DNA of 43,272 bases from a virus (taxonomy: Duplodnaviria > Caudoviricetes): positions 1-43,272 of the IMG/VR virus record IMGVR_UViG_3300010362_000039; one strand, written 5' to 3'. The notes below the pieces were generated by a model. That model was not told where the DNA came from, made no database searches, and was given only the letters and a program-made list of their open reading frames with translations. Made by a program: the position numbers and the translations under genes. Each line of letters opens with the position of its first letter. Within the stretch, counting starts at the first letter, position 1. Positions 187 through 20,408 of this stretch are shown here, one piece after another.

Positions 187-441
187 ATGCTTCCGGAACT
201 CGTCGACCTTGAGAATTTTCGCCTCGAATGTGACTGGACGTACGAGCAACTCATCCATGAGATGCGACTCAAGCGTATCCGGTTGTCGTTGAGCACCCTT
301 TACTACCTCCTGAAGCGCCACGGGAACCCGACCGACCGGACGCTCCACAAAATCCGCCTCTACCTCCAGCGCACCAAAGCAGAACGGAAGCGGGCGCATC
401 GCAGCCGCGGCCTCGATCCCGAACCGGCGGTGCTCTCGTGA
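187..441 (+). CDS. Cro-like HTH transcriptional regulator
   Basis: Short basic protein with HTH-like segment (WTYEQLIHEM...LSLSTLYYLLK...PTDRTLHKI); first gene of the rightward operon. Confidence 0.6.
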   Translation: MLPELVDLENFRLECDWTYEQLIHEMRLKRIRLSLSTLYYLLKRHGNPTDRTLHKIRLYLQRTKAERKRAHRSRGLDPEPAVLS

Positions 442-1097: not shown

Positions 1098-1945
1098 CGC
1101 TCACGCCTGGCGTGTACCAGATTCCCGCGGCGCTCTATCACGCGGACCCGTGTCCCGAACCGTCGCTCTCGTGCTCCATCATCAAACTGATTTGTCTCGA
1201 ATCGCCCGCGCACGCCTGGGCGGCACACCCGCGCCTCAATCCGCAGTACGCCCCTGAGAACGGCGAGCACTTCGATATTGGAACGGCTGCGCACGCCGTA
1301 CTCCTCGAGGGCGAAGCCGCGGTCACGATCATTGATGCCCCGGACTGGCGCACGAATGCCGCGAAGGCCTCGCGCGAACTCGCCCGCATCGAGGGACGTG
1401 TGCCGCTCCTGGCCAAGACGTGGGCGGATGTGCAGGCGATGGTGAAGGCCACGCGCGCCCAACTCGATCGCCACAAGGACGGCGGCGCCGAGATGTTCAC
1501 CGCCGGCGAACCGGAACGCACGCTCATCTGGCAGGAGGACGGGATCTGGTGTCGCGCCCGTCTCGATTGGCTGCGCGCTGGCGCGATTGACGATTTCAAA
1601 ACCACGGGCGCGAGTGCGAACCCGGACGCCTGGACCCGGGCGATGTTCAACGCCGGCACCGATATTCAAGTTGCCTGGTATCTCCGCGGCCTCAAAGCGA
1701 TCTCGGGTGAGGACGTGACGTTCCGCTTCGCCGTGCAAGAAACCTATCCGCCGTACGTCCTGGCCGTCATCGGCCTCGGTCCTGATGCGTTGATGCTCGC
1801 CGAGAAAAAACTCCTTTACGCGCTCGAGGTGTGGCGGCGCTGTCTGAAGAAGCGCGACTGGTTCGGGTATCCGCGCCGCACCTGCTACGCGACCTTGCCG
1901 CCGTGGCACGAGGCCCAGTGGCTCGAGAAGGAGTTGACGCGATGA
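1094..1945 (+). CDS. RecE/exonuclease VIII-like PD-(D/E)XK nuclease (DUF3799-type)
   Basis: YHAD...SLS, GTAAHAVLLE, CRARLDWL, DDFKTT, QVAWYLRG, FAVQETYPPY motifs. Confidence 0.85.
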   Translation: MTLTPGVYQIPAALYHADPCPEPSLSCSIIKLICLESPAHAWAAHPRLNPQYAPENGEHFDIGTAAHAVLLEGEAAVTIIDAPDWRTNAAKASRELARIEGRVPLLAKTWADVQAMVKATRAQLDRHKDGGAEMFTAGEPERTLIWQEDGIWCRARLDWLRAGAIDDFKTTGASANPDAWTRAMFNAGTDIQVAWYLRGLKAISGEDVTFRFAVQETYPPYVLAVIGLGPDALMLAEKKLLYALEVWRRCLKKRDWFGYPRRTCYATLPPWHEAQWLEKELTR

Positions 1946-2169
1946 CCCGGAAGCCGCCGCTCACGCAACGCGATCTCGAGGCCGTGACGTGCGAGATGCC
2001 GGGCTGTGATCACACCGGGCACGATGGCGGGCTGATCCTCTCGGGCCGGTGTCATCCGGGCGCACCGATTCGGGCGCTCTATCGCGACGGGGTGCTCGTG
2101 GTGTCGTGTGCCGTCTGTCAGGGGTTCATCGTCAACATCGCCGTCGCGGCGGGGGCGGGGTGGCACTGA
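1942..2169 (+). CDS. Hypothetical Cys/His-rich protein
   Basis: ATGA overlap, AAGGAG upstream; CxxxxC...CH...CxxC. Confidence 0.55.
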   Translation: MTRKPPLTQRDLEAVTCEMPGCDHTGHDGGLILSGRCHPGAPIRALYRDGVLVVSCAVCQGFIVNIAVAAGAGWH

Positions 2170-2240
2170 TGGAGTTTGTTGCGGTTCTCGTCGCCATCGT
2201 CATCGGCTGGCTCGTGATTGCGCTCGTGCGCCGGAATTGA
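2169..2240 (+). CDS. Tiny single-TM peptide
   Basis: TGATG coupling; MEFVAVLVAIVIGWLVIALVRRN. Confidence 0.4.
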   Translation: MEFVAVLVAIVIGWLVIALVRRN

Positions 2241-2248
2241 GGGATTTG

Positions 2249-2485
2249 ATGAGAGTCACGCTCGACAACACCGACAAGATCGTGGAGCTGCAGCTCGCGC
2301 CGAATACGTTCGTCCTGGCGCGCGTGTGGGAAGGCCACACGGAGAACGGGATTCCCTGTCACGCGTACATCGTCCGCATTGCCGTGGACAAACAGGCGGA
2401 CGCCTCGGAGTTCGCACGCGATCTCGAAGAGATGCGACCGGCCACACCAGCGATCGCCGCACTGCCGGCGCGCCTGGTGATTTGA
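2249..2485 (+). CDS. Hypothetical protein
   Basis: ATG 2249 with GAGGGA upstream; normal composition (RVWEGHT motif). Confidence 0.6.
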   Translation: MRVTLDNTDKIVELQLAPNTFVLARVWEGHTENGIPCHAYIVRIAVDKQADASEFARDLEEMRPATPAIAALPARLVI

Positions 2486-2513
2486 ACAACCAAACCAAGG
2501 GGAGGGCGAGCAA

Positions 2514-3254
2514 ATGACCCGAAAGTCTCACGCTGACATTCCGCAACTGTGGACGAACTATCGCGTGCGCTGGCTGTTCCTGACAAAAATCTGCGCCTCA
2601 GTACCGGCCGACCCTGAACTCGTGAAGAAGTGGCTCGATGCACGAGCGCCCCGCGTGGCGCCGGCCGGCGCGTTATCGATCGAAGAAATCAACGAGGAAG
2701 TCCTGGCGAGTATCGAACGCGGTGAAGGGGACGCCGATCAGTCCTATTCGATGCTGGTCTTTCAACGCCACCAGGGCTCACTCGTGCAGCGAGCGGCCAC
2801 GGTGAAAGCGCACATCAAGGACTGTGCGCGGGTGCTCTCAGCGCAGTATGTCGGGCGGATTCAGGGCGAGCGCGCCTTCAGCACGCGCGTCATCAATGGC
2901 GTCTATACGGACGCGGCGGTGTATTGGTTGCCGATCACGCGCCCGGACGGCACCAACGTCGAACGCCCTGATGGCGAGTTCGATAAAGCCATCCACGTCA
3001 AAGGGCCACGCGGCACGATGAACGCGATCAAGCGGTTCGAGTACATCGAGCCGCCCTCGGTGCTCACGTTCACACTCAACGTCCTCGGGCGCTCTGTGTC
3101 CGAAACAGATCTCCACCATCTCTTCACCTATGGAGGCGTGCATGGCTACGCAGGCGAACGCGGCGACGGAGAAGGACGGTACGAGTACGAACTCGAACTC
3201 ATCACCGACCCGATCGCTGCTCCGGGACGACGCGCCGCAGTTGCGAACCGTTGA
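2514..3254 (+). CDS. Stand-alone RAMP (Cas7-like) RNA-binding protein
   Basis: N-terminal strand YRVRWLFLTKICAS; LVQRAATVKAHIKDCA resembles the RAMP 'ipgssiKG.lr' helix; FEYIEP..LTFTL; C-terminal glycine-rich loop YGGVHGYAGERGDGEGRY; AAGGGGAGG RBS. Confidence 0.75.
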   Translation: MTRKSHADIPQLWTNYRVRWLFLTKICASVPADPELVKKWLDARAPRVAPAGALSIEEINEEVLASIERGEGDADQSYSMLVFQRHQGSLVQRAATVKAHIKDCARVLSAQYVGRIQGERAFSTRVINGVYTDAAVYWLPITRPDGTNVERPDGEFDKAIHVKGPRGTMNAIKRFEYIEPPSVLTFTLNVLGRSVSETDLHHLFTYGGVHGYAGERGDGEGRYEYELELITDPIAAPGRRAAVANR

Positions 3255-3525
3255 GGCGATTCTGAAAAAGAACGAACAGATCCTCGATGGCCTCGAGCGC
3301 GGCTCCCTCACGCCGAAGATGGGCGAGCAGATGGGCCAGTGCATCAAGACGCCGCAGAACCTCGTGCGCCTCGAGATCGCGTATCACCGAATGATCAAGG
3401 ACTACGGTCGCACGGTGCCGGTACCGCGCTCGCCGCTCCTGCGCTCGATGATCCCGGGACTGAATCCGGACAAGGTCGAGCCCACGGACGGCGAGAAGGT
3501 CCGCGCGTTGATCGGTGAGAAGTGA
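3142..3525 (+). CDS. Small, probably helical protein; putative accessory subunit of the RAMP/array system
   Basis: GGAGG at 3132-3136 precedes ATG 3142; lies between the RAMP gene and the array. Confidence 0.6.
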   Translation: MATQANAATEKDGTSTNSNSSPTRSLLRDDAPQLRTVEAILKKNEQILDGLERGSLTPKMGEQMGQCIKTPQNLVRLEIAYHRMIKDYGRTVPVPRSPLLRSMIPGLNPDKVEPTDGEKVRALIGEK

Positions 3526-4271
3526 CGACGAGTCCTGTCGTGGCGTGCGCTGATTTGGCGTGAGTCGAAGCGTTCTGTTGTGACGTCGAGTAGTGATTTG
3601 CGGTGTGCCGTGTGCGCCATGTCGTGACGTCGAGGCGTGTCGTGATTCGTTGTGTTTTGGGCTGCACTGATCTGGCGTCGAGTGGTGGTGCGCAGTGATG
3701 TCGGGGTGACCTGAAGTGACGCCGAGTAGTGAAGTGTCGGGCCGTGCGATGTGATGTTCTGCCGCCGAGTAGTGTTGTGAAGTGCCGTGGTGAGACGTGA
3801 TCTGCCGTGAATTGGCGTGCCGTCGAGTGGTGAAGCGATCTGGCGTCGTGTGTTCTGCCCTGGCGTCGAGTCGTGTGGCGTAGTGAACCGCAGCGATCTG
3901 TCGTGCCGTCGAGTTTTGTCGTGAGCTGCACTGCACTGGCTTGTCGTGGCGTCGAGTGGTGTACCGGCCTGTCCTGTCGTGGTGTGACCTGACGGCGAGC
4001 AGTGGTCTGGGCCGTCGTGTTCGGGTGTGTGCTGTCGTGACGCCGAGACGTGCCGTCTAGTGGGCTGGGACGTCGTGGTGTGACGTGGCGCCGAGGCGTG
4101 TCGTGGTCCGTCGTGAAGAGACGCGAAGTGCTCTGTCGCCGAGGGGTGAAGGTGCGTTGTTCCGTCCTGTGGTGACCTGACGTCGAGTAGTGCTGCGCAA
4201 TGCGGTGACGTGAAGTGACCGTCGAGGCCTGTCGTCATCTGATTTGTTGTGTGCTGTCGCCGAGTAGTGAT
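3526..4271 (+). ncRNA. Pentamer-periodic guide-like array: 16 units of (NN-BTG)n separated by CGNCGAG
   Basis: 17 delimiters (GNCGAG at 3527, 3585, 3629, 3677, 3721, 3764, 3822, 3865, 3908, 3951, 3994, 4042, 4090, 4138, 4182, 4221, 4259); spacings 38/43/48/58 nt, four units +1 nt; no credible ORF. The repeat is seen directly; expression as RNA is inferred. Confidence 0.8.
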
Positions 4272-4273
4272 CC

Positions 4274-5257
4274 ATGCCTTTTGAATTTCGTCCGGCCATC
4301 CGTGAGAACGTCGGCCTCCTGATCGGCCTCTCGGGCGGGAGTGGCAGCGGGAAAACGTGGTCCGCGATGCTCCTGGCGAAAGGCATCAGTGGCGCGAAAC
4401 GGTTCTGCGTGCTCGACACCGAAGCCGGGAGAGCCCGCCACTACGCCGATCAATTCACCTTCGACCACGGCGATCTCGGTCCCCCGTTCACACCCGCCCG
4501 CTACAGCGAAGCGATCACCGCGGCGGACAAAGCGGGCTATGCCGCGATCGTCGTGGATAGCGCGAGCCACGAGTACGCCGGCGAAGGTGGCGTGCTCGAG
4601 ATGCAGGAGGCGGAACTCGAGCGCATGGCGAAGGGCGACGATCGCCGGCGCGAGACGATGAAGATGTCCAGTTGGATTCGCCCGAAGATGGAGCACAAGA
4701 AGTTCATTCAGAAGCTGCTCCAGATCCGCGCGCACCTGATTTTGTGCTTCCGGGCGGAACCCAAGGTCGAAGCCGTGAAGGACGAACACGGCAAATTGAT
4801 TTGGCGTGAGAAGCAATCGCTCGTCGGCCTGAATGGCTGGATCCCGGTCTGCGAGAAGAACATGCCGTACGAGCTGACCATCAGCTTCCTCCTGATGGCC
4901 GATCGCCCTGGTGTGCCGATTCCGATCAAGTTGCAGGAACAGCACAAAGCGATCTTCCCTCTTGACAAACCGATTACCGAGGAGTCCGGCCGTCTGCTCG
5001 CCGCCTGGGCGCACGGCGCATCGGAGCAACCGACGATGAATTTATCTGAAGCCACCACGAGCACTTGGCTGAAACGGATTGCCGAGGCCAAGACCCGCAA
5101 GGATCTCGAGACCATCAATGGCGAGATCGCTGCCGCGAAAGCGATGCTGTCGGCGCCACAAAAAACCACGCTCCGCAACGCCGTCAAACAGAAAAGCAAC
5201 ACGTTACCGCGCACGACAGCGGGCGGTGTGAAACAAAGCGACATTCGATGGTCGTGA
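4274..5257 (+). CDS. Sak4-like AAA ATPase / single-strand annealing protein
   Basis: Walker A GGSGSGKT, VLDTE, IVVDSASHE; located in the recombination module. Confidence 0.8.
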   Translation: MPFEFRPAIRENVGLLIGLSGGSGSGKTWSAMLLAKGISGAKRFCVLDTEAGRARHYADQFTFDHGDLGPPFTPARYSEAITAADKAGYAAIVVDSASHEYAGEGGVLEMQEAELERMAKGDDRRRETMKMSSWIRPKMEHKKFIQKLLQIRAHLILCFRAEPKVEAVKDEHGKLIWREKQSLVGLNGWIPVCEKNMPYELTISFLLMADRPGVPIPIKLQEQHKAIFPLDKPITEESGRLLAAWAHGASEQPTMNLSEATTSTWLKRIAEAKTRKDLETINGEIAAAKAMLSAPQKTTLRNAVKQKSNTLPRTTAGGVKQSDIRWS

Positions 5258-5650: not shown

Positions 5651-5975
5651 GCATGTGCTCAAGGTATGCCCTCCGGATCCGGATCCGGATCTACGTACGT
5701 ACCGTCGCAACTTGTACGTAATTAGTACGATTAGAACCTCGCGCTTCGCGCGATTGACGGCTTCAGAACAAAAGCAAAACCAAACGCCGCGACTGATTGC
5801 GAAGCTGACGCGGGAACTCCTACACGCCAAGGTCTACGACTCGTTCGTCGATCTCCTCGAGGACATCAAAGGCCGGTGCGCCCGGCTGCGCATCCGCTAC
5901 CAGCCACACGACATCACCGAGGCACTCCGGTTGATCGAATCGAATCGATCGCTCACGACGGAGCGCCTGCGATGA
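5643..5975 (+). CDS. Hypothetical protein; possibly the C-terminal part of the replication initiator
   Basis: Begins with a CPPDPDPD linker typical of the middle of DUF1376-type initiators. Confidence 0.45.
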   Translation: MLKHVLKVCPPDPDPDLRTYRRNLYVISTIRTSRFARLTASEQKQNQTPRLIAKLTRELLHAKVYDSFVDLLEDIKGRCARLRIRYQPHDITEALRLIESNRSLTTERLR

Positions 5976-6244
5976 GGAGATGGCTACGCGCCACGTCCGA
6001 TCGCTTGTGTGGTCTGTGCCACGGGCTGATCCACGAGGGCGAACCGGTGCTCCTCATCGACATCGGCCCCACGATCAAGCTCTATCGCTGCGAGCGATGT
6101 GCCGGGCCGGCACCGCCGGATCTCCCGCCGCTCGTGGCACCGGTCCCGATTCCGCGGACCGTCCTCACACGTTTTAGCCGCGGCATGTTGCCGCTCGATT
6201 GGAAAACACGCGGTGTCGGCCGCGAACCGGGCGAGGAGGGGTGA
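5972..6244 (+). CDS. Hypothetical zinc-binding protein
   Basis: ATGA overlap; CGLC...CERC. Confidence 0.55.
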   Translation: MRRWLRATSDRLCGLCHGLIHEGEPVLLIDIGPTIKLYRCERCAGPAPPDLPPLVAPVPIPRTVLTRFSRGMLPLDWKTRGVGREPGEEG

Positions 6245-9420: not shown

Positions 9421-9469
9421 CTGTGACGACCGAGTGACGAGATGACGACCGAGTGACGAGGTGTTTTCT

Positions 9470-9841
9470 ATGTGGACGTTGGCCAAATCGTTCCGGTTCG
9501 AGGCCGCCCATCACCTCCCGAGTCACGATGGGAAATGCCGGCGCGTGCATGGACATTCCTGGGTCGGAGAACTCGAGGTCCGCGGCGACATCCTCCACAC
9601 GACGGGCCCGAAACGCGGGATGGTGATCGACTACGGGGACCTGAGTGCCGCCCTGGCGCCGCTCGTGGAGGAGGTACTCGATCATCACGACTTGAATCTC
9701 ACGACGGGACTCCCCGATCCGACCTCGGAGGCGATCGCCGAGTTCATCTTCCGGTGGCTCACCTCCCGTCTGGAGGGGCTCGTCGCGGTGACGATTCACG
9801 AGACCTGCACATCGAGGTGCCGCTATGCTCCGGGTGACTGA
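9470..9841 (+). CDS. queD: 6-carboxytetrahydropterin synthase
   Basis: FEAAHHL, CRRVHGHSW, GMVIDYG, LDHHDLN, PTSE, ET motifs; GAGGTG RBS. Confidence 0.92.
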   Translation: MWTLAKSFRFEAAHHLPSHDGKCRRVHGHSWVGELEVRGDILHTTGPKRGMVIDYGDLSAALAPLVEEVLDHHDLNLTTGLPDPTSEAIAEFIFRWLTSRLEGLVAVTIHETCTSRCRYAPGD

Positions 9842-10439
9842 AATCTTTCGATCCTTACAAGGTGAGGGACGGCGGGCCGGTGAGCCGTCCGTGTTCGTCC
9901 GGTTCTCCGGGTGCTCGGCGAAACATGCGTGCGCGAGTTCGGGTGTTGTGTGCGATACCGAGTTCGAAAGCGGGACCGCCTTCGAGACTGAGGAACTCCT
10001 CGAGGTGGTCGAGCGTGTGGCGCGGGGCATCAAGTGGGTCGTGTGGACCGGTGGCGAGCCGATCGATCAACTCACCGAGGCGATCGTTCGGGAGTTCAAA
10101 CGCGCCGGCTACCATCAGCAGATCGAAACGAGCGGGATCGGGCGCGTGCCCGCCGGCCTCGATTGGGTCACCGTCAGCCCCAAGGTCGCGGAGCACATTC
10201 TCGTCCGGCATTTTCCGGAGCGTCAGGACGGCCTCCACGTTGACGAGTTGAAGTACGTCCGTCACGTCGGCCAGGCGATCCCGGAGCCGGCGCTCAAGGC
10301 CGCGGTGTATTGCCTCTCGCCGCACAGTGACGGCGATCTCCTCAACCGGGCGAACCTCGAGCACTGCATTCAACTCTGCTACGACCATCCCGCCTGGCGT
10401 CTCTCGGTGCAACAGCACAAGCTCTGGCGGGTGCGATGA
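9825..10439 (+). CDS. queE: 7-carboxy-7-deazaguanine synthase (radical SAM)
   Basis: EIFRSLQGEG, FVRFSGC...CDT, TGGEP, IETSG, TVSPK, WRLSVQQHK. Confidence 0.9.
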   Translation: MLRVTEIFRSLQGEGRRAGEPSVFVRFSGCSAKHACASSGVVCDTEFESGTAFETEELLEVVERVARGIKWVVWTGGEPIDQLTEAIVREFKRAGYHQQIETSGIGRVPAGLDWVTVSPKVAEHILVRHFPERQDGLHVDELKYVRHVGQAIPEPALKAAVYCLSPHSDGDLLNRANLEHCIQLCYDHPAWRLSVQQHKLWRVR

Positions 10440-11101
10440 AGAAGAAGCCCGCCGAAACGACGATCGAGGATCTGACACCGAACCCGCGGAATCCCCGCGT
10501 GGCCTGGAAGGCGGAGCAAATCGAACCGTTCAAGGCGAGTCTCCGCCGCTTCGGGGATCTCGGGGGCATCGTTCGCAATCTCACGACGGGGCAACTCGTC
10601 GGTGGACACAAGCGGGTCGAGGTGTTCCGCGCCTCCACCGATGTGCGCGTCGTGAAAACCACGCAGGCGAAGGATGAGCAAGGCACGGTTGCCCTCGGCT
10701 ACGTGATCGTCGACGGCGATCGCTTCGCCTACCGCGAGGTCGAGTGGGCACCGGAGATCGAGGCCGCGGCGAATCTCGCCGCCAATCGTTGGGGCGCCGA
10801 GTGGGCGTGGCAGCTGGTCTCGGAAACCTTGCAGGGCATCAGTGATCCGTCGCTGCTCGAGTTGACCGGCTTCCCGGCGCACGAATTGGAAAACCTCCTC
10901 GCCGCGGACTGGACGCCACCAGCCCGCGAGGCCTTACCGGATGACGGAGCGCCCGGGCACCTCGTGAAGTTGAGCAACGAACAGCACGCGCTTCTGCAGC
11001 AGTGCAAGGAACGCCTCGCCTTGCGGTACGAGGAGGACGGCCTCACCGATGCGCGTGTTGTCGCCCTGGTGTGCACGGAGTTCCTGAACCATGCCTCCTG
11101 A
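10436..11101 (+). CDS. ParB/Srx-like domain protein
   Basis: DLTPNPRNPR, SLRRFG, IVRN...LVGGHKR, LELTGF. Confidence 0.75.
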   Translation: MKKKPAETTIEDLTPNPRNPRVAWKAEQIEPFKASLRRFGDLGGIVRNLTTGQLVGGHKRVEVFRASTDVRVVKTTQAKDEQGTVALGYVIVDGDRFAYREVEWAPEIEAAANLAANRWGAEWAWQLVSETLQGISDPSLLELTGFPAHELENLLAADWTPPAREALPDDGAPGHLVKLSNEQHALLQQCKERLALRYEEDGLTDARVVALVCTEFLNHAS

Positions 11102-11939
11102 TATTCGACTCGCCCTCGCGGACGGCCAGGCGGAACGGAACGGCAGTCTCGATCGGCACCCGACCTCCGCACACGACCACGCGCCCGCGTTGCTCGTCTC
11201 GTACGTGTACCTCGAGCCGTTCTTCGAGAACCGCGCGCATTACCACTATCGTGACTGGGTCATGGATAGCGGCGCCTTCTCCGCGCATCACAGCGGGATC
11301 GAGATTCCGCTCGAGGCGTACATCGAGAAGTGCCGCGAACTACTCGCCACCGATCGGACGCTGACCGAGGTGTTCAGTCTCGACGTGATCGGCGATCATC
11401 TGGCGAGCCGGCGCAATTGCGAGGCGATGTGGTCGGCCGGCATCCCGGCGATTCCCTGTTATCACCACGGGGAGCCCGAGTCCGTTCTTCTCGAACTCGC
11501 CGCGGCGTATCCGAAGATTGCCCTCGGCGGCGCCGTCGGTTTGCGGTCCGCGTATAAGTTGCGATGGGCGCAACAGTGCTTCGCCCGGGTGTGGCCGAAG
11601 CGGATTCACGGGTTCGGGTTCGGCGCCGGTACCCACATTCTCGCGTTGCCCTGGCACTCCGTCGATGCCACGAATTGGGAAAGCGGGCCGTGCCTCTGGG
11701 GCAATTGGAAACGCTACGGGAAGATGAGCGTCCGCGGGAGTAAGCAGAACCTTCGCGGGGAAGTCGAGGATCTCCTCACGCTCGAGCGCCGCGCGCAAGT
11801 CCGGTGGCGTCCTCAGATGGTGGAGCTCGACGCCCTTCCCTCCACCGCGCCCGTCGTGCGCCTGGCGATGGCGACCAATCGCAACGTGAAGAGCGAGCGC
11901 TACACCTCCGGACTCGGACCGGTGAAAGGCACCTCATGA
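11091..11939 (+). CDS. TGT-fold transglycosylase, DpdA-like (candidate DNA 7-deazaguanine insertase)
   Basis: MDSGAFS, LDVIG, IPCYHHG, IALGGAVG, IHGFG, SVDATNW; embedded among preQ0 genes. Confidence 0.7.
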   Translation: MPPDIRLALADGQAERNGSLDRHPTSAHDHAPALLVSYVYLEPFFENRAHYHYRDWVMDSGAFSAHHSGIEIPLEAYIEKCRELLATDRTLTEVFSLDVIGDHLASRRNCEAMWSAGIPAIPCYHHGEPESVLLELAAAYPKIALGGAVGLRSAYKLRWAQQCFARVWPKRIHGFGFGAGTHILALPWHSVDATNWESGPCLWGNWKRYGKMSVRGSKQNLRGEVEDLLTLERRAQVRWRPQMVELDALPSTAPVVRLAMATNRNVKSERYTSGLGPVKGTS

Positions 11940-12604
11940 CGACTCTCGTGATCCTCTCGGGCGGGATGGATTCCGCCGTGCTCCTCGCCCATTTCCTCGA
12001 CGCCGGGCACATCGTCTCGGCGCTCAGTGTCGACTACGGGCAACGTCACCGAATCGAACTCGAGCACGCGCACGCCCTGGCGGACTATTACCGGGTCCCG
12101 TGGGAGTGTGCCGATCTCTCCGCCCTCCGTCCGCTCCTGGCGGGCAGTAGTCAGACGAGTGAGGTACCGGTTCCGTACGGGCACTATGCGGATGCGTCGA
12201 TGCGGGTGACCGTGGTCCCGAATCGCAACATGATTCTGCTCGCGGTCGCCGGCGCGAAGGCGATCGGGATGGCGGCGGACCAGATTGCCTACGCCGCCCA
12301 CGCGGGCGATCATCCGATTTATCCGGACTGCCGGCCCGAGTTCGTTGACGCGCTCGAGGCGGCGCTCCTCCTGGCCGACTGGCAACAGGTCCGGATTGCC
12401 CGCCCGTTTATCCGGTGGACGAAGGCGGAGATTTGCACCCGCGGCGCCGGCCTCCGTGTGCCGTTCGAGTTGACGTACTCGTGTTATGAGGGGCGCTCCG
12501 ATCGGCACTGCGGGCGCTGTGGTACGTGTGTCGAACGGCGCGAAGCGTTCACGCTTGCCCGGGTGCCGGATCCCACGCGGTACGCCGCCGAGGTGTCCGC
12601 ATGA
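11936..12604 (+). CDS. queC: 7-cyano-7-deazaguanine synthase
   Basis: LSGGMDS, DYGQRH, VPNRN, YPDCRPEF, TYSCY...CGRCGTC. Confidence 0.95.
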   Translation: MTTLVILSGGMDSAVLLAHFLDAGHIVSALSVDYGQRHRIELEHAHALADYYRVPWECADLSALRPLLAGSSQTSEVPVPYGHYADASMRVTVVPNRNMILLAVAGAKAIGMAADQIAYAAHAGDHPIYPDCRPEFVDALEAALLLADWQQVRIARPFIRWTKAEICTRGAGLRVPFELTYSCYEGRSDRHCGRCGTCVERREAFTLARVPDPTRYAAEVSA

Positions 12605-13155
12605 CCGTCGCTACTGATGCCGTGATCGAGCACCTCCACGGCCTCCTCGTCGCCCTCGGCGAAGATGCCACGCGGGAAGGCCTCCAACGCACACCCGAAC
12701 GAGTCGCACGCTTCTTCCGCGAACTCACGACCCGGCAACCGTTCGAGTTCACGACGTTCGATGCCGAGGGCACCGACGAAATGATTGTGGTCGGGCCGAT
12801 TCCGTTCTATTCCCTCTGCGAACATCATCTGATGCCCTTCTTCGGGACGGCCTCGATCGGTTATGTCCCGAACGGACGGATCGTCGGCCTCTCGAAACTC
12901 CCGCGATTGCTGGAGTACTTCGCGCACGGATTCCAAAACCAAGAGCGGATCACACAGCAAGTCGCCGCGGCGCTGATGGCGCGGGTCGAGCCGAAGGGCG
13001 CCGGCGTGGTCCTCCACGCGCGGCACCTCTGCATGGAAATGCGTGGCGTCCGGGTGCCAGGGGCGACGACGACCACCTCGGCGCTCCGGGGTGTATTCCT
13101 CGAGGATGCCCGCTGCCGGCGAGAGTTTCTCGAGTTCGATGCCCGTCAATCATGA
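12601..13155 (+). CDS. folE: GTP cyclohydrolase I
   Basis: REGLQRTPERVA, SLCEHHLMPFFG, GLSKLPR, QERIT, HLCMEMRGV. Confidence 0.95.
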   Translation: MTVATDAVIEHLHGLLVALGEDATREGLQRTPERVARFFRELTTRQPFEFTTFDAEGTDEMIVVGPIPFYSLCEHHLMPFFGTASIGYVPNGRIVGLSKLPRLLEYFAHGFQNQERITQQVAAALMARVEPKGAGVVLHARHLCMEMRGVRVPGATTTTSALRGVFLEDARCRREFLEFDARQS

Positions 13156-19130: not shown

Positions 19131-20408
19131 ATGAATATCGCGCAACTCGAAGCGGATCTCAAAAGCAAACAGGCCGCGGCGAAGACACTCCTCGAGCAAA
19201 CGATGCACGCCTGCGAGGAACACATCGTCACACCCGCCACCGATAAAACGCCGGCCGTCAAAGGTCGTTTGATGACGACCGAGGAGAAGGCGGCGATTCA
19301 GGCGCTACTCGATGAAGCGAAAGGCATCAAGGCGCGGCTCGATGGTGTCACGACCGACGCGAACATGATGGCCGAGATCGATCGCCTCACGAGTAATCTG
19401 CCGGACCGCAACACCGTCGCCGGTCAACGGAAGATGCTCTCGATCGGGCAGCAATTCGTCAGTAATCCGGAATATCGCAAGTTCATCGAACGCCAGGGGC
19501 ATCGGAGTTCGAGTGCCTGGAATGCGCCGGCCACGGAGGCCGTCGTGCAATTTCAAGCGACGACCCTCACGGAAGATCCGGCCTCGGGCGGCAAGCTGAT
19601 TCTTCCCGACGTGCAACCGGGGATCTTGTTTCTCCTCTTCAAGCGGCTCGTCATCGCGGACCTCGCGGCACCCGGCACGACCACGAGCAACATGATTCAG
19701 TTCATGAAGGAGACGCTCTTCACGAATAACGCCGCCGCGGTGCTCGAGGGCGGGACCAAACCGGAGTCGGCGCTCGCCTTCGATAGCGCGACCAGCCCCG
19801 TCCAAAAACTGGCGCACTGGATTCCAGTCACGGAGGAGATGCTCGAGGACTTCGCCCAGACGCAATCGATCATCGACGCGCGCCTGCGACTCGGCCTCGC
19901 GCTCACCGAGGAAGATCAACTCCTCAACGGCAACGGCACCCCGCCCAATCTTCGCGGCTACATGAATCTCGCCGGCCTCGCGGCGCCGATCGCCCGCGGC
20001 ACCGACACCAACATGGATGCGATCTTCAAACAGATCACGGCCATCAGTACGACCTCGTTCGTCACGCCCGATGCCTGGGTCATGAATCCGACCAACTGGC
20101 AGACGTGCCAACTCTCGAAGGATGCGCAGGGCCAGTACGTGGGCGGCGGACCGTTCACGACCGCGCAAACGCCGACGATGTGGGGCTTGCCAGGGGCGAT
20201 CACGCCGTCGATCGTCGCGGGCACGTCGCTCGTCGGCGGGTTCCGCTCCTCCTCGCAAATCTTCCGCCGTGGCGGCGTGCGCGTCGAGGCCTCGAACAGC
20301 CATCAGGATTTCTTCATCAAGAACCTCGTGGCCATTCGAGCGGAAGAACGCCTCGCCCTGGTGGTCTACCGCGAAGCGGCCTTCGGCAAAGTGACGGGTC
20401 TGAACTAA
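19131..20408 (+). CDS. HK97-fold major capsid protein
   Basis: EGGTKPES, KLAHWIPVTEEMLED, EEDQLLNGNG, WVMNP, FIKNLVAIRAEER. Confidence 0.95.
   Translation: MNIAQLEADLKSKQAAAKTLLEQTMHACEEHIVTPATDKTPAVKGRLMTTEEKAAIQALLDEAKGIKARLDGVTTDANMMAEIDRLTSNLPDRNTVAGQRKMLSIGQQFVSNPEYRKFIERQGHRSSSAWNAPATEAVVQFQATTLTEDPASGGKLILPDVQPGILFLLFKRLVIADLAAPGTTTSNMIQFMKETLFTNNAAAVLEGGTKPESALAFDSATSPVQKLAHWIPVTEEMLEDFAQTQSIIDARLRLGLALTEEDQLLNGNGTPPNLRGYMNLAGLAAPIARGTDTNMDAIFKQITAISTTSFVTPDAWVMNPTNWQTCQLSKDAQGQYVGGGPFTTAQTPTMWGLPGAITPSIVAGTSLVGGFRSSSQIFRRGGVRVEASNSHQDFFIKNLVAIRAEERLALVVYREAAFGKVTGLN

Follow-up and report, generated by a model that had tools for sequence, protein, structure and literature searches.

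A pentameric array in a temperate phage as the probable guide store of a VIPR-type system matching two bases per codon in related phages

The window, meaning the whole stretch of DNA analysed (43,272 bases, 64% GC, the whole of a virus record), carries an array of 16 units (3527..4264, + strand) in which variable dinucleotides alternate with NTG triplets. The variable pairs match conserved genes of related phages; therefore, the array likely belongs to an RNA-guided system of the VIPR type. It is probably the guide store of that system, matching two of every three bases in conserved codons of kin phages; the neighboring RAMP-fold protein is predicted to silence the matched genes by means of these guides. 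The layout of two genes plus an array and the skip rule, both as in VIPR, and the RAMP fold of the neighboring protein favor this reading.

The phage carrying the array is temperate and encodes an integrase. Other gene products recognized by a PHROGs scan of the 56 window proteins include: terminase, portal, HK97-type capsid and tail proteins and enzymes of the 7-deazaguanine pathway. The array is flanked by a 246-aa ORF (2514-3254), an overlapping 127-aa ORF (3142-3525) and an AAA_24 gene (4274-5257). No cas families are recognized among the 56 proteins in the PHROGs scan, no CRISPR repeat-spacer array in the window, no nuclease gene in the RAMP/accessory/array locus and no Rfam match in 1900-4500. 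A sister phage (G001) is syntenic with the window at 65-83% identity and has 337 bases at the place of the 2.3-kb locus, without the array and the accessory gene; it carries a perfect site for unit 9 (14/14) and scores 18/20 for both units 1 and 6. Elsewhere in the window, genes for QueD, QueE, a TGT-like protein, QueC and GTP cyclohydrolase form a 7-deazaguanine DNA-modification cluster (9461-13152) within which a ParB-like gene sits. A 19-nt direct repeat (9423-9460), including TGACGACCGAG and resembling the array delimiter, lies in an intergenic stretch.

Array anatomy and decoding rule

The units follow the pattern GAG-(NN-NTG)n-NC-GYC and are 38-58 nt long. Seventeen G-N-C-GAG delimiters bound the 16 units, and the delimiter between units (NC-GYC-GAG) spans 8 nt. 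Unit length is 5n+3 in 12 of the 16; units 2, 4, 14 and 15 have one extra base, which natural targets place in the linker with the NN register kept (19/20 in G003, 18/18 in L005). Among the 93 pentamers of the 12 regular units, the first two positions are mixed, the third is G or C in 82, the fourth T in 77 and the fifth G in 90; the triplets include GTG (41), CTG (25) and TTG (6) but never GGY. The 5-nt periodicity of TG is strongest in the array within the window (peak of 19 vs a window average of 0.86). Each guide carries 12-20 informative bases (6-10 NN in the window). The array is co-oriented with the neighboring genes and starts at a stop codon, which would suit an RNA from the + strand; SUSP1 arrays, as far as the published account was consulted, also lie on the strand of their gene, but the tract beside a homologue in Microcystis phage Mae-JY09 is G-rich on the other strand.

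On recheck, the array coordinates and the literal two-base readings of the original prediction are correct, including A-V-T-D/E-P-P-Y-G-V for unit 12 and A-G-N/K-T-A-I/M-F/L-H/Q for unit 7, and its scores of 11/12 for unit 13 against 4409-4426 and 12/16 for unit 9 against 1907-1930 are reproduced. One correction applies to all of the peptides. The closing dinucleotide of a unit is NC in 166 of the 191 related units and is mostly mismatched where the target is good (0/2 for units 9 and 12). As it is a near-constant NC, this dinucleotide is left out of the decoding, and the first residue of each peptide quoted earlier is therefore dropped; that residue derives from the delimiter and probably carries no information.

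For target searches, the dinucleotides are reverse-complemented and joined with 0-3 skipped bases, and both strands are covered. The kin pool comprises 115 phage sequences, some of them overlapping, with 3.9 million letters in total and without the own genome; it was gathered with the RAMP, AAA_24 and capsid proteins of the window, a choice that favors capsid matches. Units 1 and 6 were first spotted in the window itself. Near-perfect targets of the 157 guides of at least 14 bases (from the window and related arrays) number 10 at a skip of one base, compared to 1, 0 and 1 at skips of 0, 2 and 3. Eight of the ten lie in recognizable genes (five capsid, an exonuclease, a methylase and one recombinase-like), and two are uncertain. 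The recombinase-like target (G002, 18/18) has a motif that we take to be serine-recombinase-like. A skip-3 count of 11 dropped to 1 after stricter array masking and is attributed to unmasked arrays matching themselves.

With a skip of one base, the best scores in the kin pool are 19/20 (unit 1), 19/20 (unit 6), 14/14 (unit 9) and 16/16 (unit 12), and in each case 0 of 300 order-shuffles reach the score; no other skip gives these scores. The alternative register (pentamer positions 2-3) and a complement-only reading give lower scores for all four units. Natural targets fix the register. Matches keep the reading frame of coding strands and leave the gap at the third codon position, as the original prediction had it, and the notion of a two-base-per-codon target list in competing phages withstands shuffles, other skips, the second register and the complement for units 1, 6, 9 and 12. 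It does not stand out from shuffles for units 2, 5, 7, 10, 11, 13 and 14, where 39-40 of 40 score equally well in the kin pool; the values for units 3, 4, 8 and 16 (13, 8, 4 and 9 of 40) are not significant. When weaker matches are clustered by family, units 2-5, 7, 8 and 10-16 do not rise above shuffles. Overall, a significant non-self target is found for 4 of the 16 window units, with a fifth moderate, and for 10 of the 157 guides.

Targets of the individual units

Two units correspond to the HK97-type major capsid gene. Unit 1 (3530..3587, + strand) reads the motif (N/K)NLLAIRAEE; its two exact matches in viral_contigs (L128 and L129, 20/20) are both capsid genes, and of 80 capsid loci 12 score 19/20 and 46 score 18/20. 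Unit 6 (3767..3824, +) covers the last nine codons and the stop codon; of the 80 loci, 2 score 19/20 and 17 score 18/20, and there is no exact match in viral_contigs. The capsid gene of the window (PF05065) has its own sites for unit 1 (20319..20348, +) and, by own-genome search, unit 6 (20379..20408, +, stop codon included), both at 18/20. The mismatches at own sites (20319-20408, 4400-4426) are partly synonymous: the guide calls for TTR leucine where the phage uses CTN, and leucine codons in eight genes are TTR in 37 and CTN in 351 instances. Such synonymous mismatches are a possible route to self-avoidance.

Unit 9 (3911..3953, +) reads EAWWLEK at the C-terminus of exonuclease VIII. This reading, already proposed, is borne out by the perfect match in the sister phage; G013 and G043 score 13/14, and 35 of 120 exonuclease VIII homologues are compatible at 14/14. 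The own site (1910..1930, +) scores 12/14, with Gln for Trp at one codon. HEAWWLEK occurs in 29 of the 120 homologues and HEAQWLEK in 2, one of which is the own gene. Judged by these homologues, unit 9 encodes the commonest kin form of the site and the window phage carries a rare variant. Unit 12 (4045..4092, +) reads VTDPPYGV, a motif of N6/N4 DNA methylases in kin phages. The DPPY reading was correct, with 16/16 in two kin-phage loci, G036 (L066, where the ORF is PF01555) and G051 (L104). Neither DPP[YFW] nor DG[HQ][HQ]R strings occur in any frame of the window.

Unit 15 (4185..4223, +), previously without an assignment, matches the own genome in sense orientation at 12/12, with 0 of 200 shuffles as good. 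The site (361..377, +) lies in frame within a small early gene (ORF 187-441, no Pfam family) that is repressor-like by position alone, and it is not kept in the sister phage.

The reading of unit 2 is moderately supported, whereas two readings compete for unit 7. Unit 2 (3588..3631, +) likely reads DGQHRIY of DUF6551/ParB-like genes: 34 of the 120 exact matches listed (about 180 estimated, not independent of each other) show this string, and seven loci of 57-65% GC with 14/14 are DUF6551, two of which have sub-threshold ParBc_2 matches. The single homologue in the kin pool (G042) scores 12/14. The ParB-like reading gains from the DUF6551 loci but not from the kin pool, where it is no better than shuffles, and the matched sequences lend moderate support to DUF6551/ParB-like genes as the aim of unit 2. 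Unit 7 (3825..3867, +) reads either a Walker A motif or NAGKTAILQ of HK97 portal proteins. Walker A spacing is found in 13 of the 120 exact matches listed (about 290 estimated); these include about six unrelated ATPases, judged by eye, and two portal proteins (L384 and L416), which share their Pfam family with the portal of the window. The proposed Walker A target is consistent with the spacing, but HK97 portal proteins fit equally. The own Walker A scores 6/14.

The readings of units 13 and 14 fail. Unit 13 (4093..4140, +) was likened to the own 'Sak4' gene, to which the tools assign AAA_24 and phrog_1366 of unknown function. This likeness is not significant: the own best score is 12/16 with 178 of 200 shuffles as good, and a one-codon bulge gives 14/16 with 27 of 200 as good. 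Among 120 homologues, 88 read PFAVIDTEA, the best protein-level score (13/16) is that of the own gene, and the 20 exact viral matches have no coding family in common. For unit 14, a likeness to an exonuclease FxVQE motif was claimed; 120 homologues read VQETYPP-like strings, none above 12/14. Units 3, 4, 5, 8, 10, 11 and 16 had been left without an assignment and are still so after the kin-pool search and family clustering. Unit 11 scores 14/16 at 5992-6014 of the own genome (1 of 200 shuffles) out of frame of the conserved ORF 5972-6244, possibly by chance. Unit 4 (3680-3723) decodes to (F/L)VP(I/M)WTH, near the P-x-W-T motif that starts Vipr-like proteins; the score of 11/14 in G007 and L342 is not significant, and by this likeness unit 4 may aim at rival systems.

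RAMP protein, accessory gene and related loci

The 246-aa protein (2514..3254, +) is a Vipr-like stand-alone RAMP with an RRM core, a thumb and a C-terminal glycine-rich loop (G-loop), found outside a CRISPR locus. Its model (pLDDT 84) resembles Cas7-11 (Z 12.7, rmsd 5.6 over 172), type VII Cas7 (Z 12.5, rmsd 3.4 over 147) and Csm3 (Z 12.5, rmsd 3.2 over 158), and from this fold it is predicted to be a guide-binding filament subunit. The G-loop includes invariant residues. The protein has 498 homologues but no Pfam or PHROG family and no match in a PDB sequence search. Membership of the published Vipr family is defined by PSI-BLAST from X1U2U4, according to the text consulted of 10.64898/2026.04.26.720920. 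SUSP1 Vipr, picked out through the residue numbers in the available text of the structure paper (10.64898/2026.04.26.720927), aligns at E 0.097 (hhalign) and E 0.054 (hmmsearch), neither significant. Weak as it is, this alignment sets Ala95-Thr96 opposite the Glu71-Met72 pocket and shows no counterpart of the GG-reading Asp177-Trp178 pair in either of two possible registers. With low confidence, these aligned residues would fit a changed triplet.

The accessory gene (3142..3525, +) is vap-like and encodes a 127-aa protein with a helical model and no fold-search match above Z 4.9. The gene starts within the G-loop codons of the RAMP gene, and its stop codon leads straight into the first delimiter. 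At the overlap, the His codon reads CAT and so supplies the ATG in 22 of the 23 loci whose frame is at least 100 aa (including the window's record). His codons in eight window genes are CAC in 83 and CAT in 23 instances.

An array of the same build, after a homologue of the 246-aa protein, is found at 27 other loci with 191 distinct units. Decoded by the same rule, relatives' arrays lead to capsid genes in G003 (19/20) and G007 (18/18 and 18/20). One guide is present in L001 (5727-5769) and L008 (5941-5983) with identical dinucleotides and different triplets; it recurs in the same or nearly the same form in a separate phage (L003, 2726). Distant homologues (L012, L013, L173 and L349; 33-39% identity) keep the delimiter and the triplet, and their guides appear sense-biased. 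In L013 and L173 the array directly follows the RAMP gene and the accessory gene is absent. A genome scan (44 of 64 parts) gave one distant locus, L173, in a Desulfobacteraceae bin.

Mode of action and relation to known systems

By analogy to published VIPR, the array would be transcribed with the operon, and the transcript would be cut or read at the NC-GYC-GAG delimiter to give guides of 38-58 nt. One RAMP protomer would bind each pentamer, hiding the NUG triplet and showing the NN to double-stranded DNA, such that binding may block transcription without cutting. The likely purpose would be to keep out close HK97-type relatives living on the same host. Partial self-matches would be expected because the guides aim at family-wide conserved sites. 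Pure kin exclusion does not, however, account for the perfect guide of G007 to its own capsid gene, and units 1 and 6 score alike in the window and the sister phage and do not discriminate between them.

The self-matches invite the alternative that the same system is chiefly self-regulatory, repressing the own capsid gene and first early gene (e.g., to keep the prophage silent) with kin exclusion as a by-product. Of 12 array-bearing contigs, four have self-matches equalled by at most 4 of 200 shuffles: the window, G003 (18/20), G007 (18/18 and 17/20) and L003 (13/14), of which the G003 site and the 18/18 and 17/20 sites of G007 lie in own capsid genes. The in-frame 12/12 match of unit 15 to ORF 187-441, absent from the sister phage, the 18/20 scores of units 1 and 6 on the own capsid gene and the encoded integrase are consistent with such a role. 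Yet the fit of units 9, 12 and 2 is better in other phages than in the own genome, unit 15 is a single case of 12 bases, and about 7-8 of the 12 contigs have no significant self-match (five of the twelve are fragments below 21 kb). A chiefly self-regulatory role is considered improbable. A second alternative, that guides act on messenger RNA like type III Csm3 and not on DNA, draws on strand: if the + strand is the RNA, other-phage targets in recognizable genes are all antisense to the message, and an antisense-like dinucleotide composition is seen in 126 of the 157 guides of the close clade and in 14 of the window's 16. In addition, SUSP1 Vipr can pair with RNA in vitro, as stated in the consulted part of 10.64898/2026.04.26.720927. 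The strand preference also fits a DNA roadblock, however; unit 15 is sense, the guides of the four distant loci are sense-like in 21 and antisense-like in 8 of 29, and the same portion of 10.64898/2026.04.26.720927 has the published complexes reaching full assembly only on DNA. We regard message targeting as quite improbable.

That the units are a degenerate repeat, with peptide readings as chance products of a two-letter code, accounts for units 13 and 14 and is in keeping with the many exact matches that units of 12-14 bases find in large collections (about 180 for unit 2 and 290 for unit 7). It fails on the in-frame capsid matches of 18-20/20, the 16/16 methylase motif and the skip-1 excess across independent arrays, and is refuted for units 1, 6, 9 and 12 by the shuffles and skip controls; as an account of the array, it is scarcely credible. 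A bolder version of the guide-store reading is unlikely: temperate phages may use the tail-less NUG-coded VIPR clade to repress, by RNA guides, their own relatives and themselves (the family capsid and the own first early gene), in place of or alongside a protein repressor of immunity, and perhaps at the level of the message.

Three features that the guide store would share, namely its system type, the skip rule and targeting at the wobble position, are already published. VIPR (SUSP1, P. fulva type II; seven types), in the sections consulted of 10.64898/2026.04.26.720920 and 10.64898/2026.04.26.720927, is a phage-borne stand-alone RAMP with a small accessory gene; its guides are built of pentamers in which NN varies, skip one base at the wobble position and have their targets in competing phages. 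All parts of the minimal VIPR locus in a phage (vipr, accessory gene and intergenic guide array) are present in the window, and the 1-nucleotide skip at the codon wobble position is observed (10 vs 1, 0 and 1, with in-frame targets). The pentamer consensus agrees in its wide form only, as NN-NTG fits NNNNG by letters. By contrast to the strict GGY and the structured invariant 3' tail described in those sections for type II, the window has NTG (mostly GTG and CTG) with no GGY, and its units are 8 nt apart with no room for a tail; guides have 6-10 informative NN, compared to the 9-16 repeats published. The consulted text of 10.64898/2026.04.26.720920 reports no self-match of at least 80% in its P. 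fulva, type III and type V sets and targets on both strands, whereas self-matches here reach 90-100% and the antisense bias is strong; lower self than non-self scores are also given in the part consulted of 10.64898/2026.10.15.759431. As 10.64898/2026.04.26.720920 also names, in that text, NNNGG, YNNNG and NNNNG repeats and staggered arrays, one published type may cover the NTG clade.

Non-canonical VIPR-like clusters (10.64898/2026.10.21.760802, compared by description from the text consulted) likewise combine Vipr-like folds with neighboring period-5 arrays, in which the triplets are different. That description is confined to motifs and folds and gives neither a register test nor a skip rule or targets for these arrays. 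Its CAC/NN is the reverse complement of GTG/NN and may be the window motif reversed, and its TGH/NN could be the same motif in another register. The RAMP fold with a glycine-rich loop is also shared with Class 1 CRISPR Cas7/Csm3; the array here is, however, pentameric, with a gapped and not a contiguous target code, and no cas operon is recognized. Natural targets of the NTG clade, the delimiter, kin-capsid targeting and perfect self-matches are absent from the VIPR texts and literature examined, of which the supplements and figures may hold them.

Thus, the gapped code of VIPR, with the same one-base skip, extends to a clade with another triplet, shorter guides and no tail. The clade offers a programmable binder that can be put to direct test and is possibly orthogonal and smaller, as well as a natural experiment to learn which residues recognize the triplet, and its self-matches raise the question of how the system tolerates, or uses, targets in the own genome. 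A homologue is also present, unannotated, in a cultured phage: Microcystis phage Mae-JY09 (L130, 2977-4150) encodes it (E 1e-11), and it is followed by a tract of weak 5-nt periodicity in which the opposite strand is the G-rich one.
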